A DNA stretch of 64,000 nt from Escherichia phage vB_Eco_F27. The DNA lies in sequence record OP870146.1; one strand, 5' to 3'. Made by a program: the position numbers and the translations under genes. Shown here piece after piece: positions 16,203-41,359 of the stretch (position 1 is its first letter; the number at the start of each line of letters is the position of its first letter). The notes below the pieces were generated by a model. The model was not told where the DNA came from and searched no databases. It saw nothing but the letters and a program-made list of their open reading frames with translations.

Positions 16203-16740
16203 ACTCATACGCCTGGAACGCGTCATAGACATCTTTTTCTGTTTTAGATTGAGCATAATTCAACGCATCAGCGATTTGCCATTTTTCTGCATCTTCAACA
16301 TGTTTAGCGTATGTGCGTTTAACATAAGGAGAAAGTACTTTATCGACATTCGCAAATGTAGTTCCGCCATACTGGTGTGAAGCAACTTGTGCAGTAATTT
16401 GTGCCATAATTGCAGTAGCAACGCCAATAGATTTAGGCGTTTCAATTTGAGCATTGCCTAATTTAAATCCATTCTCAAGCATCCCCTTTAAATCGACCAA
16501 ACAGCAATTAGTAAACGGAAGAGCAGGAGAATAATCAATATCATGCATGTGAATGATTCCGCTTTCATGCGCATTCATAATAAAAGACGGGACCATATTT
16601 TTGGCAATGTGCTTAGACACAATACCAGCCATAAGGTCCCGTTGAGTTGGAAAAACACGAGAATCTTTATTAGCATTCTCGTTCAAAAGATCTTTATTAG
16701 TTTTATGAATTAATCCTTCAATTTCTTTTTCAATTTTCAT
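16203..16740 (-). CDS. nrdD: anaerobic ribonucleotide reductase NrdD, exon 1
   Basis: MKIEKEIEGLIHKTNKDLLNENANKDSRVF. Reads through to ...AFQAYE then into the intron. Proposed splice after GAGU at 16203. Confidence 0.88.
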
Positions 16741-17210
16741 TTTAAACTCTTTCTAAGCTGCTTTTTGAATGAAGCTATTAATTGTGTTTTAGTATCAGAT
16801 TCATTATATTCAAATCCTCTTTGAAGCATCTCGGCCATCATTTCCTCTTTACCTAGTCTTGAGAACTCTTTAGTTTTGTCTGGAACAAAATTAGGATGGA
16901 TATTATTAGCAGAATAATCTTGTTTCAAATAAGCAAGAAGAGCTTCAAGCCATTCGAGGTAGTCGACATCACGACCTTTAAGACCAGAACGGTTGAACTT
17001 ATGCTTCATTTGTCCTTCTGCTGCGTTGCACAGAGAACAGAGTAATCCACGAACTCTACCGGCTTTTGGCCCGTTTAATTCATGGTCGTGGTCAAGATGG
17101 TTACCTTGAACATCAGGGTCTAATTCACGGTGGCAAATAGGACACTTACCGTTCTGTGCATCATAAAATTTTTGTTTTTCTTCTTTATATTTTGCGCCTG
17201 ATAATAACAT
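16737..17210 (-). CDS. 49: endonuclease VII (Holliday junction resolvase) gp49
   Basis: 157 aa as in T4. CPIC...HLDHDH...CSLCN zinc and H-N-H-type motifs. Confidence 0.92.
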   Translation of the reverse strand: MLLSGAKYKEEKQKFYDAQNGKCPICHRELDPDVQGNHLDHDHELNGPKAGRVRGLLCSLCNAAEGQMKHKFNRSGLKGRDVDYLEWLEALLAYLKQDYSANNIHPNFVPDKTKEFSRLGKEEMMAEMLQRGFEYNESDTKTQLIASFKKQLRKSLK

Positions 17211-21889: not shown

Positions 21890-21916
21890 GTTTTACCTCC
21901 AGTAGTTGATAGGTCT

Positions 21917-21945
21917 ATAATAACATAACCGTAGACCTTGTAAAC
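21917..21945 (-). promoter_or_regulatory. early promoter cassette (PeSL type)
   Basis: Minus strand: GTTTAC, 17 nt, TATTAT. Inverted repeat AGGTCTA/TAGACCT brackets the -10. Confidence 0.65.
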
Positions 21946-22373: not shown

Positions 22374-23375
22374 TTATTTCAGTAAAGTTACTTCAGAGAT
22401 TTCCTCCCAACCATCTTTATCAGTTGAAATAAAATCTGCTACATAAAGAGCCGTACGTAATGATACATTGCGAAGACGAGATACGTTAGCCTTCATCCAG
22501 GACAATGCTTTATACGTTTCTGCATCCGTCAGACCACGTTTCTGCATCATGTCAGTAGATAATATTACATCTTCAACTCGAACCATAATCTCTTCATTAG
22601 AGTGTACTCCAAGGTCGAGATACACTGAACGAGATACTAAAGCTTGAAGGTGCGGAGCAAGTTTCGAACCGCGTTCTAACTCTTTATCGATATCAACGTT
22701 TGTAATGAAAACGATAGTACCTTCAAACTCAAATTCTTTATCAATACCCTTATCATCGAGATAAGATGACGCAGTGCTCCAACAAACTTTGCGTTTATCT
22801 CCGGTATCTAATGCTGCTTTAAGAAGGTTCAAGATGTCCATATCTGAGAATACATCAACGTCGTCGATTAAGAGAACGCTGTCTGCATCACGGTTGAGCC
22901 AAAGTTGTTCGTAAAGGCCAATACCAGAGATTTTACCATTAATGCTTTTGTATTTGATGAAACCATTATCATTAGCATTATTAAGTGCTTTATCCAGAGA
23001 ATACGTCTTACCAATACCGGCTGCACCTGAAATAATGAGTGAACGAATTTTGCCATCGATAATGCCATTCGTCATCATGTTCATTACTTTAAAGCGTTTG
23101 TTGATACGAGTTTTCATATCTTCAGTGCTTTCAACAACTGCAACTGGTGGTGTCTCAACTCCTTCCATTACGATGTCTGATTTGAAGACCCATACTCCAC
23201 GTTCAGAACCATCAATCATAACGAAAATTTTACCATCACCTAAGTGGGAACATTCAGGATTAAGCTTTGCCGGGAACCATGTCTTTGTGGCAACATAAGA
23301 ACCAGAGATTTCGTTATTACGATAGATACCTTTTTTGATTTGAACGTTGAACATTTTATTCTCCAATTTACTCAT
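22374..23375 (-). CDS. AAA+ family ATPase
   Basis: 333 aa. Walker A GAAGIGKTYS, Walker B VLLIDDVD, sensor-1-like IVFITN. The N-terminal ~100 aa form an extra domain. Confidence 0.75.
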   Translation of the reverse strand: MSKLENKMFNVQIKKGIYRNNEISGSYVATKTWFPAKLNPECSHLGDGKIFVMIDGSERGVWVFKSDIVMEGVETPPVAVVESTEDMKTRINKRFKVMNMMTNGIIDGKIRSLIISGAAGIGKTYSLDKALNNANDNGFIKYKSINGKISGIGLYEQLWLNRDADSVLLIDDVDVFSDMDILNLLKAALDTGDKRKVCWSTASSYLDDKGIDKEFEFEGTIVFITNVDIDKELERGSKLAPHLQALVSRSVYLDLGVHSNEEIMVRVEDVILSTDMMQKRGLTDAETYKALSWMKANVSRLRNVSLRTALYVADFISTDKDGWEEISEVTLLK

Positions 23376-23392
23376 TTCGTTTCGATAGGTCT

Positions 23393-23421
23393 ATAATAAC
23401 ATGTTTAAAGCAAAAGTAAAC
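23393..23421 (-). promoter_or_regulatory. early promoter cassette
   Basis: Minus strand: GTTTAC, 17 nt, TATTAT, then AGACCTATC. Confidence 0.65.
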
Positions 23422-29383: not shown

Positions 29384-29922
29384 TCTTTTATTTCCAGTAG
29401 TTTATTTGATTTAAGGTAATTAGCCTTTTCTAGGACTTCAGAAGCATATTTACTTCCAGCACTTGTCTTCCATCCCGCATTATATGAGGATATAGCTTTT
29501 CTTATATCCCCGTTATGTATATTTAACCAATAAGAAAATTCGATATAAGCCCATCTGGTTGAATTAGACCGCTTAGATAGCATTTTCTTAATTTGGGCAT
29601 CAGTCATATTATAACCAAGCTGGTTAATTCTTGCCCTCATTGTTGGTAGATAATTTTGGAACATTCCATACGCATGGTGACCTTTCTTATCTTTAAGATT
29701 AATACCGGCAGATGATTCCTGCCATAGTATTGCGGCCATTATGTATCCAAGTCCTTTCTTATGCATATTTTCATGCGTTTTAAATTTTCCATCCTTAGAA
29801 AACTGTTCCCCAAACTGATAAGCATAATTCAAGTTATCGAGTTGGACATTACTAAAAGTATGCTCGGAGCTATGTGCTGATAACGAAAGAGCAAATAGAC
29901 CAGCGAGTAGTGCTTTTCTCAT
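29380..29922 (-). CDS. secreted soluble lytic transglycosylase (SLT) domain protein (vs.1 position)
   Basis: Signal peptide MRKALLAGLFALSLSA. SLT motifs WQESS, GMFQ and SYNAGW. Confidence 0.75.
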   Translation of the reverse strand: MRKALLAGLFALSLSAHSSEHTFSNVQLDNLNYAYQFGEQFSKDGKFKTHENMHKKGLGYIMAAILWQESSAGINLKDKKGHHAYGMFQNYLPTMRARINQLGYNMTDAQIKKMLSKRSNSTRWAYIEFSYWLNIHNGDIRKAISSYNAGWKTSAGSKYASEVLEKANYLKSNKLLEIKE

Positions 29923-30389: not shown

Positions 30390-30417
30390 TTTGATTTCTC
30401 CTCTAGTTGACAGGTCT

Positions 30418-30446
30418 ATAGTAACACAACTAGAGGAGAAGTAAAC
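30418..30446 (-). promoter_or_regulatory. early promoter cassette of regB with SD-sequestering inverted repeat
   Basis: Minus strand: GTTTAC, 17 nt, TACTAT. The spacer TTCTCCTCTAGTTG (30427..30440) is perfectly complementary to CAACTAGAGGAGAA (30397..30410), which contains the regB SD. Confidence 0.7.
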
Positions 30447-31507: not shown

Positions 31508-31816
31508 TCAATTAGAAAATAAATTTATCCAAGATTTTTCTTTAATCAAAAATGGGTCGGAATTAAACGCCATTAAACTTTGAGTGATTAATCCCTTAAA
31601 TGGCCCATCAATAAATTCCATTTTGAAATGTGGAATACTAGTCATCAACCGTGCATTAGGAGCAGTACAAAGAACATGCTGCCCTGCGAACGGACCTTTA
31701 GTTAAACGATATCGTTTAGGTTTAAAATGGTAAATCTCGTAATTTTCTACAAGAGCCCTTTTATTGCATACTGGGCTGTTATAACAATACTCAAAAACTT
31801 CAATAGTGGTCATCAT
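31508..31816 (-). CDS. hypothetical protein
   Basis: 102-aa ORF. Confidence 0.6.
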   Translation of the reverse strand: MMTTIEVFEYCYNSPVCNKRALVENYEIYHFKPKRYRLTKGPFAGQHVLCTAPNARLMTSIPHFKMEFIDGPFKGLITQSLMAFNSDPFLIKEKSWINLFSN

Positions 31817-32352
31817 TGCATTCCAATCACAAAAAATTGAGGACGAGCATTACCGCCGATGCAATATTTGCTTTTGCAGCAGTGCTGTACTGTTTTAATG
31901 TGGACATTGTAAATCTTATCCATATCAGGAGCTTTAATAGGCTCGTCAATTATATACAGAATACGAGAAAGCGTTAATCCACGGAATTTAGAACCTTCAT
32001 TGCCAATAAAACTACGAACAGAATCAGTAAATAAACGGAATCGAATATCATCGCTAGAATAACGAGAAAATTCTTTTTTAATGTTGCCAGCAGAAATTTT
32101 AGCATAAGCTGAAGTATTAGAAAGAACAATAACTGTTCCACCATCATATAGCCAATTAACAGCAAAATTAGTTACTGCGGACGATTTACCTGATTGTCTG
32201 CCGCCGTCTAAACGAAGTGTACAGTACTGCTTGAGTACGTCTTCAAATGGTGGGGCATAACCGTTCTTACAAATTTCTTCTACTCTAGCATCAGAATGGT
32301 GTGTAAAAGCATTCATCAGGGATAGATAAGGTCCAGTTAAAAATGTTCTCAT
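31813..32352 (-). CDS. P-loop NTPase
   Basis: 179 aa. Walker A GGRQSGKSS, Walker B LYIIDEP. Confidence 0.65.
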   Translation of the reverse strand: MRTFLTGPYLSLMNAFTHHSDARVEEICKNGYAPPFEDVLKQYCTLRLDGGRQSGKSSAVTNFAVNWLYDGGTVIVLSNTSAYAKISAGNIKKEFSRYSSDDIRFRLFTDSVRSFIGNEGSKFRGLTLSRILYIIDEPIKAPDMDKIYNVHIKTVQHCCKSKYCIGGNARPQFFVIGMQ

Positions 32353-32433
32353 TTAGTTTCTCTTTTAGGTTGGGCCATTCCGTGGCGCATGAATTGTCCA
32401 TTTCTGTATTTACCCCTCCAAGTAATTATGAAT

Positions 32434-32462
32434 ATACTATCACAATTCTAGGAGATGTAAAC
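32434..32462 (-). promoter_or_regulatory. early promoter
   Basis: Minus strand: GTTTAC, 17 nt, TAGTAT. The -35 abuts the stop of the upstream internal-protein gene. Confidence 0.55.
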
Positions 32463-32861
32463 TTATTTGTAGGTTTTCATCCAATTCTTGAACAAAGCCG
32501 CGACGTCTTTCTCTTTAACGTTCAGTTTAATGTCCAACATTTTACCGCCCGCTGCTCTCGTTTGACGAATCTTAGCAGTACCGGTTTCACCATTCCACTC
32601 AACATAATATTGCCCAGTGTTCATAGCGATACCGTTGCCAAAGTCTTCGTTATTAGAAGTAGTGAATGCCAACTTCATGGTCTTAGAGACACGGGCCGGC
32701 ATGCCTGTCTGAAGGGCATTACGAACGCGAATAACCTGAGGAGTGGCCTGGGTCAGGTTCTCATTCAGTTCTTCGGTGAACTCTTCAGATTCAAACATCG
32801 CCAAAAGTTCTTTAGATGCAGGAATTACATTCTCTGCGATAAATTCTTTATATGTTTTCAT
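32463..32861 (-). CDS. capsid-targeted internal protein (IP-A)
   Basis: The N-terminus MKTYKEFIAE-N is the T4 capsid targeting sequence, with an I-x-E prohead-protease site at residue 10. Sits in the ipII/ipIII neighbourhood next to e. Confidence 0.75.
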   Translation of the reverse strand: MKTYKEFIAENVIPASKELLAMFESEEFTEELNENLTQATPQVIRVRNALQTGMPARVSKTMKLAFTTSNNEDFGNGIAMNTGQYYVEWNGETGTAKIRQTRAAGGKMLDIKLNVKEKDVAALFKNWMKTYK

Positions 32862-32925: not shown

Positions 32926-33186
32926 TTAAGCTTTACCGCCAGAAATAATTCCGAAGTTGTTAAAATCGTATCCAATATCGTCAACATCTACTTTAGGACT
33001 TACTACAACATAAGCAATTTCACTACGTTTTGCATAGGTGTTTATTTCTTTACCATCACCACCTAAGAAAGAATACCCATTACGTTTTAATGAGCCAAAG
33101 TCTTCCGCATCACCAATGAAAGCTTTAACTTTAAATTTAGGACCTTTGGCATCTGCTTCAACGATAAATTCTTGATACATTTTCAT
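32926..33186 (-). CDS. capsid-targeted internal protein (IP-B)
   Basis: N-terminus MKMYQEFIVE-A (CTS plus I-x-E site). 86 aa. Confidence 0.7.
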   Translation of the reverse strand: MKMYQEFIVEADAKGPKFKVKAFIGDAEDFGSLKRNGYSFLGGDGKEINTYAKRSEIAYVVVSPKVDVDDIGYDFNNFGIISGGKA

Positions 33187-33192
33187 TTTTCC

Positions 33193-33303
33193 TTAGTAAA
33201 TTGATTTACCATAGTATTTGTACCAAGTCGGACGTTGAGCAATTTTTTCATCTAAGCGTGCTTGATTTATCGCAATGGACGCTTCGGACGGGTCATAATT
33301 TCC
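33193..33303 (-). pseudogene. denV: denV (endonuclease V, pyrimidine-dimer glycosylase) 3' remnant
   Basis: The translated tail [36 protein letters not shown] matches the C-terminus of T4 endonuclease V ([37 protein letters not shown]). The upstream ~100 codons are missing and no in-frame ATG remains. A promoter cassette abuts the break. Confidence 0.8.
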
Positions 33304-33323
33304 TCCAAGTAGTTGATGAATGT

Positions 33324-33353
33324 ATAGTATCAAAACCCTTGGAGGAAGTAAAC
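33324..33353 (-). promoter_or_regulatory. early promoter cassette at the denV breakpoint
   Basis: Minus strand: GTTTAC, 18 nt, TACTAT. The spacer TTCCTCCAAG (rc of 33338..33347) is complementary to CTTGGAGGAA (rc of 33300..33309). Confidence 0.6.
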
Positions 33354-33355
33354 AA

Positions 33356-33637
33356 CTATTTTTCTGAAGCGCCTGAAATATATTTTTCAAGACGTTGTTT
33401 CATTAAAGAGCCGTTCTTAGCGATTTCTTCCGGTTTATCGCACATACGCAACAAGGCTTCGAGCTTAACGATATCGCTGGTACGTTCAAATTTGCGAGTA
33501 TCTATCTTACTAGCAAGTTCAGAAATACGTGCTAATAGACTTTCGGCTTCAACCAAAGCTGCACCTAGCTTAGTTGCAAATGTGTCAGTAGCTTCGTTAA
33601 GAATAGATTCTGATAAAAATTCACTATATGTTTTCAT
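33356..33637 (-). CDS. capsid-targeted internal protein (IP-C)
   Basis: From the ATG at 33637 (ATGA overlap with the e stop) the N-terminus is [11 protein letters not shown] (CTS plus L-x-E site). 93 aa. Confidence 0.7.
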
Positions 33638-34122
33638 ATATACGCTTTCCAAGTTCCTGTTTTAAATGTTGAGATTACGCGTTTCGCGCGATTAGGTGTC
33701 TGACGATACCATTTAGATTGGGCTAGATTTACTGCCGCTTCGTCCCAACGTTTCTGTTGAAGCATACGAAGAGAATTAGTAAAACCGGCAACGCCTGCTA
33801 CGCCCATTTGGAAGACCATATTGACCAATGCACATCGACGAACAGCATCTAAAGAATCATATACCGGTTTAAGTTTAGCATTACCCAAGATTCCGCGAAC
33901 GGCTTTATCAACGTCTTCATTAAATAGCTTTTCAGCCTCATCAAGGGTAATTGTACCGTTGCATTTACGACCGATCATTCTGTCAAGTTCAGCTTTAGCT
34001 ACGGCTAAAGAAGGGTTCTTTGTTACTAAATGGCCTATGCCAATCGTCCAAAAGCCTTCAGTGTCTTTGTATAAAGTCAGTCTAAGACCTTCGTCATTAC
34101 GAAGCATTTCAAATATATTCAT
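33634..34122 (-). CDS. e: lysozyme (endolysin) e
   Basis: [32 protein letters not shown]...[56 protein letters not shown] is near-identical to T4 lysozyme. 162 aa. Confidence 0.95.
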
Positions 34123-34150
34123 AATACCTCCCACGTTTATAGGAGGTATT
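34123..34150 (-). promoter_or_regulatory. SD-sequestering hairpin of gene e
   Basis: Minus-strand AAUACCUCC-UAUAAACGUG-GGAGGUAUU lies immediately before the e ATG. The 9-bp stem buries the SD, and a late-promoter-like TATAAAC sits in the loop. T4 controls e translation this way. Confidence 0.7.
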
Positions 34151-34156
34151 TATTAC

Positions 34157-34612
34157 TTATAGGAGGGTAGTGAGCACCTTATATAATGATTTGCCCATTA
34201 CATATTCCCATTGAGAAGGTTTAATTAAAGCGAATGCATCAAATTCAGGAATCTGACGTCCGTCTGGGAATGTATGATAGGAATTACAAACACTGTTTCT
34301 GAATTGCTCGTGCTCTACAGGGATGGTATATAGGAACAGATGAATATTCTTATTGTCTGAGTAATGATGTTCACCTAGGTCTTTCAGGAAGGCAGGGTCA
34401 TATTGTGTAAACCCAGTTTCTTCTTCGCATTCACGAATAGCGGCTTCAATAGGAGATTCGCCAGGTTCGACACGGCCTTTAGGAATATCCCACCGATGAG
34501 CTAATGCACCTTTAGGACGAGAACCAGTTACACGGCCCATGAATAATTCTTTATCTTTTGTCATGAAGATAATACCAGCGGACAACTCTTTCACTTTATT
34601 TTTCTTACTCAT
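34157..34612 (-). CDS. nudE: Nudix hydrolase NudE (e.1)
   Basis: Nudix box GRVEPGESPIEAAIRECEEETG. 151 aa from the second ATG, adjacent to e as in T4. Confidence 0.88.
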   Translation of the reverse strand: MSKKNKVKELSAGIIFMTKDKELFMGRVTGSRPKGALAHRWDIPKGRVEPGESPIEAAIRECEEETGFTQYDPAFLKDLGEHHYSDNKNIHLFLYTIPVEHEQFRNSVCNSYHTFPDGRQIPEFDAFALIKPSQWEYVMGKSLYKVLTTLL

Positions 34613-34841
34613 CATCTCGGTCCCATGATTTGGCCATTAATTCGGACATAAATTCTTCAATGCGCGTTTCTTTAGATGGACTTTCACTATTAGAGACCGC
34701 AAGTTTGTAATCTGCAATAGGACAGAACATATCAAGGTCCATATTAAGGTCGTCTTTGATTTTTTCTTCTGACACATCTTTATCGTATGTGTACAGATAA
34801 CTATCACATGATTCTGATTTAATGTAAATTGCTATACTCAT
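34605..34841 (-). CDS. hypothetical acidic protein
   Basis: The ATG at 34841 (MSIAIYIKSE) has AGGAA 8 nt upstream. That SD is encoded within the ..ECRN.. tail of the upstream gene. Confidence 0.55.
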   Translation of the reverse strand: MSIAIYIKSESCDSYLYTYDKDVSEEKIKDDLNMDLDMFCPIADYKLAVSNSESPSKETRIEEFMSELMAKSWDRDDE

Positions 34842-41302: not shown

Positions 41303-41330
41303 AATATTCTCCTCATGTTTTGATAGGTCT

Positions 41331-41359
41331 ATAGTAACACATCTAGGGAAGAAGTAAAC
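41331..41359 (-). promoter_or_regulatory. early promoter cassette
   Basis: Minus strand: GTTTAC, 17 nt, TACTAT, then AGACCTATCAAAAC. Confidence 0.65.

Follow-up and report, generated by a model that had tools for sequence, protein, structure and literature searches.

The window, by which we mean the whole 64-kb stretch of DNA that was analyzed, is approximately 97–98% identical to the phages G2469, mogra, JK42, and FL18 over 25-kb stretches. The genes at the locus considered here are all on the minus strand, and their order in the direction of transcription is nudE, the lysozyme gene e, a gene for a 93-aa internal head protein (IP), a remnant of the endonuclease V gene denV, a gene for an 86-aa IP, a 132-aa IP-like gene, and a vs.8-like gene. 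These genes and the smaller features between them are as follows.

34157–34615, minus strand: nudE
33634–34134, minus strand: lysozyme gene e
33356–33637, minus strand: upstream 93-aa internal head protein gene (PHROG 3499, E 1e-46), which likewise lies 5' of intact denV
33324–33353, minus strand: T4-type early promoter native to denV, with −35 GTTTAC (33353–33348), an 18-nt spacer, and −10 TACTAT (33329–33324), from motif scan and alignment
33302–33345, minus strand: hairpin with arms CCTCCAAG (33345–33338) and CTTGGAGG (33309–33302), which encloses the −10 box, from RNA folding
33302–33306, minus strand: native denV Shine-Dalgarno sequence GGAGG, also in the 3' arm of the hairpin and the same in intact relatives
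33288–33300, minus strand: deletion junction with a single hybrid repeat copy, AATTATGACCCGT, from the repeat offset, the alignment gap, and the BLAST overlap
33267–33296, minus strand: frameshifted mini-ORF from the native denV start (MTRPKRPLR-stop), from direct translation
33193–33292, minus strand: denV 3' remnant of 32 codons and a TAA stop, in a different frame from the native ATG, from tblastn, PHROG 1183, and alignment
32926–33186, minus strand: downstream 86-aa internal head protein gene (MKMYQEFIVE...; PHROG 2667, E 4e-21), which likewise lies 3' of intact denV
32463–32861, minus strand: 132-aa IP-like gene (PHROG 15461)
31813–32352, minus strand: vs.8-like gene

Both IPs flanking the remnant are of T4 type, with the N-terminal MKTY.EF..E targeting/cleavage motif and matches to internal head protein PHROGs, and relatives of the upstream one were found at 7 loci in IMG/VR. 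The 86-aa IP gene starts 6 nt past the denV stop codon. The order in relatives is e, IP (93 aa), denV (414 nt, 137 aa), IP (86 aa), further IPs, and vs.8, and since this order is identical in Mosigvirus-type relatives, the location of denV between IP genes is its native arrangement. The original prediction had taken this location as the sign of a recombination scar; the location was right, but the scar does not follow from what is the normal Mosigvirus-type order. In the T4 species, the order is e, ipIII, ipII, denV, and vs.8 (RB59). Farther downstream, AlbertHofmann, Shf125875, and FL18 have other IP genes in place of the 132-aa IP-like gene body (32469–32832, minus strand), which is shared by HMD-9 (Tequatrovirus). 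Homology around this swapped body resumes at the N-terminal MKTY.EF..E codons (32833) and at the downstream GTTTAC hairpin (~32468).

The last 32 residues and the stop codon of a T4-type endonuclease V are encoded at 33193–33292 (minus strand). In a tblastn search of the 64-kb window, T4 DenV residues 96–137 were matched with 33 of 42 residues identical (E 1e-17); the query agrees with PDB 2END. DenV residues 102–137 of AlbertHofmann (Mosigvirus) likewise matched the remnant (tblastn; 92% identical, E 4e-18), and a 65-aa ORF at 33193–33390 matched positions 100–138 of the 139 positions of PHROG 1183 (E 2e-8), labeled "endonuclease V N-glycosylase UV repair enzyme". By both the tblastn and the profile matches, the DenV C-terminal segment is present in the remnant, and these matches put the identity of the 33193–33303 translation far beyond chance. 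The remnant aligns to nt 311–414 of intact denV in relatives and is orthologous to DenV residues 106–137. Conversely, the Pfam domain Pyr_excise (PF03013), which covers residues 1–87 of an intact relative (E 7e-14), was absent from the window ORF at 33193–33390. The locus thus carries a non-functional 3' remnant of denV, as originally predicted, but the length given for it, 36 codons, was too great: homology by descent begins at 33292, which leaves 32 codons plus the stop. The "GNYD" of the 36-residue translation resembles N-N-Y-V only because of a repeat described below; it arises when the ribosome-binding site and the bases around the start (GGA AAT TAT GAC) are translated in the frame of the remnant.

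DenV catalysis depends on the alpha-amino nucleophile of the N-terminal Thr2 and on Glu23. At this locus, codons 4–102 are deleted and the frame is shifted, with ATG ACC CGT (M-T-R) kept, and the resulting translation, MTRPKRPLR-stop, has no Glu23 in frame with the remainder of DenV. The absence of the catalytic N-terminal part from the window was borne out, as tblastn found no other denV sequence, N-terminal part included, in any frame of the 64 kb. At the DNA level, the N-terminus is not wholly lost, since ATGA (33296–33293; ATG ACC CGT when the repeat is counted) is kept. The number of nucleotides missing, 310, cannot be divided by 3, so that a 9-codon ORF now begins at the native ATG and the denV codons are out of frame. 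The 65-aa ORF that starts at a TTG is spurious, as had been suspected, because it overlaps the upstream IP gene and passes through the promoter.

The promoter hairpin noted earlier at 33324–33353 (GTTTAC/TACTAT) proved to be real. Its RNA fold has a free energy of −20.7 kcal/mol (z −2.78), and the pattern GTTTAC-N16-19-TANNAT-N10-30-GGAG occurs 6 times on the minus strand of the window against 0.04 expected. A generic sigma-70 scan misses the denV promoter (score 8/12, threshold 9), which a T4-early-specific pattern detects, and the record of phage Lutter has a "promoter" feature at the homologous place. The −35 and −10 boxes lie on either side of the 5' arm, so the hairpin would form only in read-through RNA, in which it would mask the denV ribosome-binding site. 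The six motif sites, all on the minus strand, are at 21897–21945, 23361–23421, 30398–30446, 32416–32462, 33303–33353, and 41309–41359, and in at least three of them (30398, 32416, 33303) the promoter spacer is complementary to the GGAG region; folding covers the denV copy (33303) among the six. A paper on RegB and denV concerns the Shine-Dalgarno sequence of T4 denV and has no bearing on the deletion.

An alignment of the window with three phages whose denV is intact (414 nt, 137 aa), namely AlbertHofmann, Shf125875, and HMD-9, shows a single clean gap of 310 columns. The 5' side is identical through GGAGGAAATTATGA, and the 3' side resumes at CCCGTCCGAAG (33292 onward) and continues past the denV stop codon (33195–33193) into the next IP gene. 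On the 5' side of the gap, the IP stop, GTTTAC, the 18-nt spacer, TACTAT, the hairpin arms, GGAGG, and ATGA are all kept base for base. The original prediction had described the remnant as fused to an early-promoter cassette; the alignment contradicts this, as the promoter hairpin, GGAGG, and ATG belong to denV itself and are the same in AlbertHofmann, Shf125875, and HMD-9.

The 310 nt lost correspond to the interval between two copies of AATTATG[A/T]CCCGT, which form 13-nt imperfect direct repeats. In the intact AlbertHofmann allele, AATTATGACCCGT is located at −4 from the ATG, at the start codon, and AATTATGTCCCGT at +306, in codons 102–106, with an offset of exactly 310. The junction in the window reads GGAGGAAATTATGACCCGTCCGAAG, with one hybrid repeat copy and no filler DNA, and the BLAST alignments to intact relatives overlap on 33288–33300 (13 nt), as expected at a short-repeat junction. 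This repeat pair is one of only two 13-nt direct repeats (one mismatch or fewer) in the 496-nt AlbertHofmann locus. In alleles with ACT as the second codon (Shf125875, HMD-9), the repeat is weaker and the 13-nt pair with one mismatch or fewer is absent. T4-type denV (RB59), in which codons 102–105 read GAT TAT ATT CCC, does not have the 13-nt repeat and is thus not prone to this particular deletion.

From these comparisons, we conclude with a probability of roughly 90% that denV of this RB69-like Mosigvirus was inactivated in place by the loss of 310 nt between direct repeats, with the native promoter and start codon kept. Replication slippage or illegitimate recombination at the repeat would have removed the 310 nt, leaving one hybrid repeat copy and the promoter, hairpin, ribosome-binding site, and ATG untouched. 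Translation from the ATG would then run through the 9-codon frameshifted ORF, making the last 32 denV codons an untranslated out-of-frame remnant, and the retained promoter may still drive transcription of the downstream IP genes. The allele is a natural, ordinary pseudogene that arose via a known deletion mechanism; it is a new case within a known class of events, and involves no new mechanism or system. For the rII system of T4, Pribnow et al. in 1981 and Singer and Westlye in 1988 reportedly described spontaneous deletions bounded by short direct repeats. The denV deletion resembles them in its short direct repeat borders, in the one copy kept, and in a size equal to the repeat spacing, but the rII deletions were selected in the laboratory, whereas this natural allele persists and spreads in the wild across two genera.

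We investigated the distribution of the deletion allele with a 100-nt junction-centered probe at E < 1e-30, so that only junction-spanning matches pass. The junction was found in 15 public records, which represent 13 phages besides the window (G8, G4498, BF15, Phaginator, 235Ecol030PP, JM17, FL18, B1.1, Shinka, JM10, FL12, FL23, and FL44) in Mosigvirus and Tequatrovirus. Among the records opened, G8, Phaginator, and Shinka belong to Tequatrovirus and JM10 and FL18 to Mosigvirus, and the sources were German manure, Danish pig feces, Polish wastewater, and US sewage. Another 186 records were intact across the 3' repeat; therefore, approximately 7% of the records with this denV type (15 of 201) carry the deletion. 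More broadly, 1093 of the 1119 DenV-matching phage records had a full-length match. The exact junction was found in IMG/VR in phage G8 only, and a scan of JGI metagenomes for it gave no match. A literature search on natural denV loss, denV in Mosigvirus, and denV as a defense trigger returned nothing relevant, and the allele is previously undescribed in the 13 other public genomes.

In the last 32 codons of five intact alleles, the differences were almost only synonymous (CCG/CCT/CCC, GAT/GAC), with one I-to-V change. In carriers, nearly every change in the remnant alters the protein in the DenV frame: S to N in the window, FL18, B1.1, G8, and Phaginator; A to D in B1.1, G8, and Phaginator; and Y to F (33212) in every inspected carrier but the window, with no occurrence among the five intact alleles compared. 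JM10 adds one silent change (CGT to CGC), and its remnant has a 1-nt deletion. An engineered Y-to-F probe found no 100% match among intact alleles, although an allele with F and another SNP would escape this probe. The amino acid-changing substitutions and the frameshift in carriers point to relaxed constraint on the remnant, which would now be decaying. The JM10 group, which by probe length also includes FL12, FL23, and FL44, carries the extra 1-nt deletion (JM10, L009 1260–1591). The downstream 86-aa IP gene of JM10 has an AA insertion and an annotated CDS of 180 nt versus 261, which indicates further decay of the locus.

Flanking markers bear on the history of the allele. The window, B1.1, G8, and Shinka have an extra T at 33355, directly after the upstream IP stop (TAGTTGTTTAC vs TAGTGTTTAC), which Phaginator, JM10, and the three aligned intact alleles lack; this T may mark the deletion haplotype through linkage. 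At the one position where the repeat copies differ, Shinka has T, the base of the 3' copy, and not A, the base of the 5' copy, which all others have. Furthermore, all four combinations of the variants at 33266 and 33212 occur. Shinka's T and these four combinations require either recombination or recurrence. The left flank of the window is like that of B1.1, and rightwards from between 33266 and 33212 the window is like intact AlbertHofmann-type alleles, such that the window itself looks like a recombinant.

We consider it probable that the deletion originated once and was then distributed by recombination, a reading favored by the Y-to-F change and the extra T at 33355, both of which were seen in carriers but not in the intact alleles compared (five for Y to F, three for the extra T). 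The single loss probably occurred in an ancestor with ACC as its second codon, and homologous recombination would then have spread the allele into many Mosigvirus and Tequatrovirus backgrounds. Shinka's T fits a separate crossover in the repeat, a single event whose A/T heteroduplex segregated, or subsequent conversion by an intact allele. The alternative is that the 13-nt repeat is a hot spot that loses the 310 nt repeatedly, the carriers in different genera being independent. Shinka's 3'-copy T would fit a different crossover point in the repeat, carriers fall in two genera, and their flanking haplotypes are mosaic. However, derived markers are shared (Y to F at 33212, Shinka included, and the extra T at 33355 in four of the carriers inspected), Shinka's T is also explained by a heteroduplex or a conversion from an intact allele after one event, and most of the intact alleles inspected have the ACT second codon and hence the weaker repeat; recurrence thus appears rather unlikely. 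It is considerably less likely still that denV loss is favored, with a hot-spot repeat and a null allele that spreads as a natural escape allele owing to a cost of DenV or to its detection by a host defense in gut and sewage E. coli.

Three other explanations concern the structure itself. PeSL (promoter-early stem-loop) cassettes mediate modular shuffling (Arbiol et al. 2010, PMC2839356; Comeau et al. 2014, PMC4122927), with TTTACW-N17/18-TAYWAT as the promoter in the T4/PST pair (PMC4122927). The denV element fits this promoter plus hairpin and its motif recurs in the window, but the denV cassette is not a breakpoint, as the deletion begins past the start codon and the cassette is unchanged. 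The original prediction held that a cassette-bounded module had replaced most of denV; in such a model, a PeSL-type replacement would have overwritten its 5' three-quarters and left the 3' end joined to a foreign cassette. Such motifs are abundant in the window (6 vs 0.04 expected), they are documented as gene-swap boundaries in T4-type phages (PMC2839356, PMC4122927), and the neighboring 132-aa IP-like module was swapped at such boundaries. Nevertheless, the cassette has the same sequence and position 5' of intact denV; it and both flanks are collinear and 97–98% identical in intact relatives, with the breakpoint inside the denV coding sequence; the interval between cassette and remnant contains no foreign DNA and keeps the ribosome-binding site and ATG ACC CGT; and the missing segment is exactly the interval between direct repeats inside denV. 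The alignment refutes a replacement at denV, which we regard as highly improbable: nothing foreign was inserted, and what is seen is a 310-nt intragenic deletion. The 132-aa IP-like body is a cassette exchange bounded by PeSL and targeting sequences, and the modular shuffling originally envisaged applies there and not at denV. An assembly or sequencing artifact that collapsed two repeats would suit a missing segment flanked by a short repeat, but is next to impossible given that 13 nt is far below read length, that 13 independently sequenced phages share the junction, and that carrier-specific substitutions have accumulated in the remnant. Finally, the remnant might be kept for a function, either because it encodes a small protein (from a TTG or from the 9-codon ORF) or because the downstream IP gene requires it as a 5' leader, as approximately 100 nt persist in all 14 carriers with the promoter and ribosome-binding site and a 46-aa "endonuclease" is annotated there in GenBank records. 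This is improbable as well, since the DenV-frame changes are nonsynonymous, the JM10 group is frameshifted, the TTG starts fall in the −10 box or the upstream gene, DenV has lost its catalytic part, and persistence is expected of a young deletion. In-place inactivation by the repeat-bounded deletion therefore remains our preferred reading.

Among complete genomes that carry this allele, that of FL18 is nearest to the window (97.9% identical over 24.8 kb). In the complete FL18 genome, tblastn found no second denV, only the remnant and a weak match to the EndoVII gene, gp49 (E 4e-4), and blastn found no copy of the deleted 310 nt, a segment that occurs just once in each of the 220 records containing it. 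In the window, a 157-aa gp49 EndoVII-like ORF (16737–17210, minus strand) gave a weak match to DenV residues 56–103 (16773–16898, E 1e-3) and is not a denV copy; a short similarity between EndoVII and EndoV has reportedly been noted in older literature. Since a second denV is absent from FL18, the phage has likely lost its own dimer repair, and DenV activity is very likely lost in the phage studied here. By analogy with T4, a phage without DenV would be UV-sensitive like a T4 v-minus mutant, and it is reasonable to predict this phenotype here.

The intact allele of the relatives is ~93% identical to T4 DenV (PDB 2END, 1VAS; PF03013) over 137 aa, and compared with T4 DenV, the window has a natural truncation without Thr2, Glu23, or Pyr_excise. 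The expected phenotype would equal that of a null v mutant among T4 v-minus mutants. T2 is a wild T-even phage that is likewise without denV between e and vs.8: tblastn found no denV match in the syntenic 12 kb of T2 (AP018813.1, 58–70 kb). T2 is reportedly more UV-sensitive than T4 according to a classical report, and its denV-less locus fits this sensitivity, in parallel with the T2-like phenotype named in the original prediction. In T2, the gene is gone from this locus without a recognizable remnant, whereas the promoter, start codon, and 100-nt 3' remnant are kept here, which makes the deletion event reconstructable. In the T2 record (AP018813.1, L021 3941–4114 and 4430–4903), e and a 57-aa vs.8-like fragment flank one 157-aa IP, and many of the products listed are clearly mis-transferred annotations.

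The GenBank records of B1.1, JM17, and FL18 label the remnant "endonuclease", and other records leave this stretch blank. In B1.1 (L005 1452–1592) and FL18 (L018 38853–38993), the label belongs to a 46-aa call from a TTG inside the −10 box. These labels are misannotations that hide the loss of denV, and the UV-repair capacity of therapeutic or environmental T-even phages would be misjudged if read from the annotation. The approximately 7% of sequenced phages with this denV type that carry the deletion (15/201 records) are predicted to be UV-sensitive, which bears on UV inactivation, environmental persistence, and phage production. Additionally, a dead allele that was probably moved between two genera by recombination may serve as a neutral marker for exchange in the hyperplastic internal-protein region. 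Two further denV variants were encountered: ESCO47 (OM386662.1) matches DenV residues 1–35 only (29628–29732), which is a different truncation, and IMG/VR contig 2974787500 (L010 2329–2757) carries an intact denV whose 5' end is of the native type and whose remainder has diverged.
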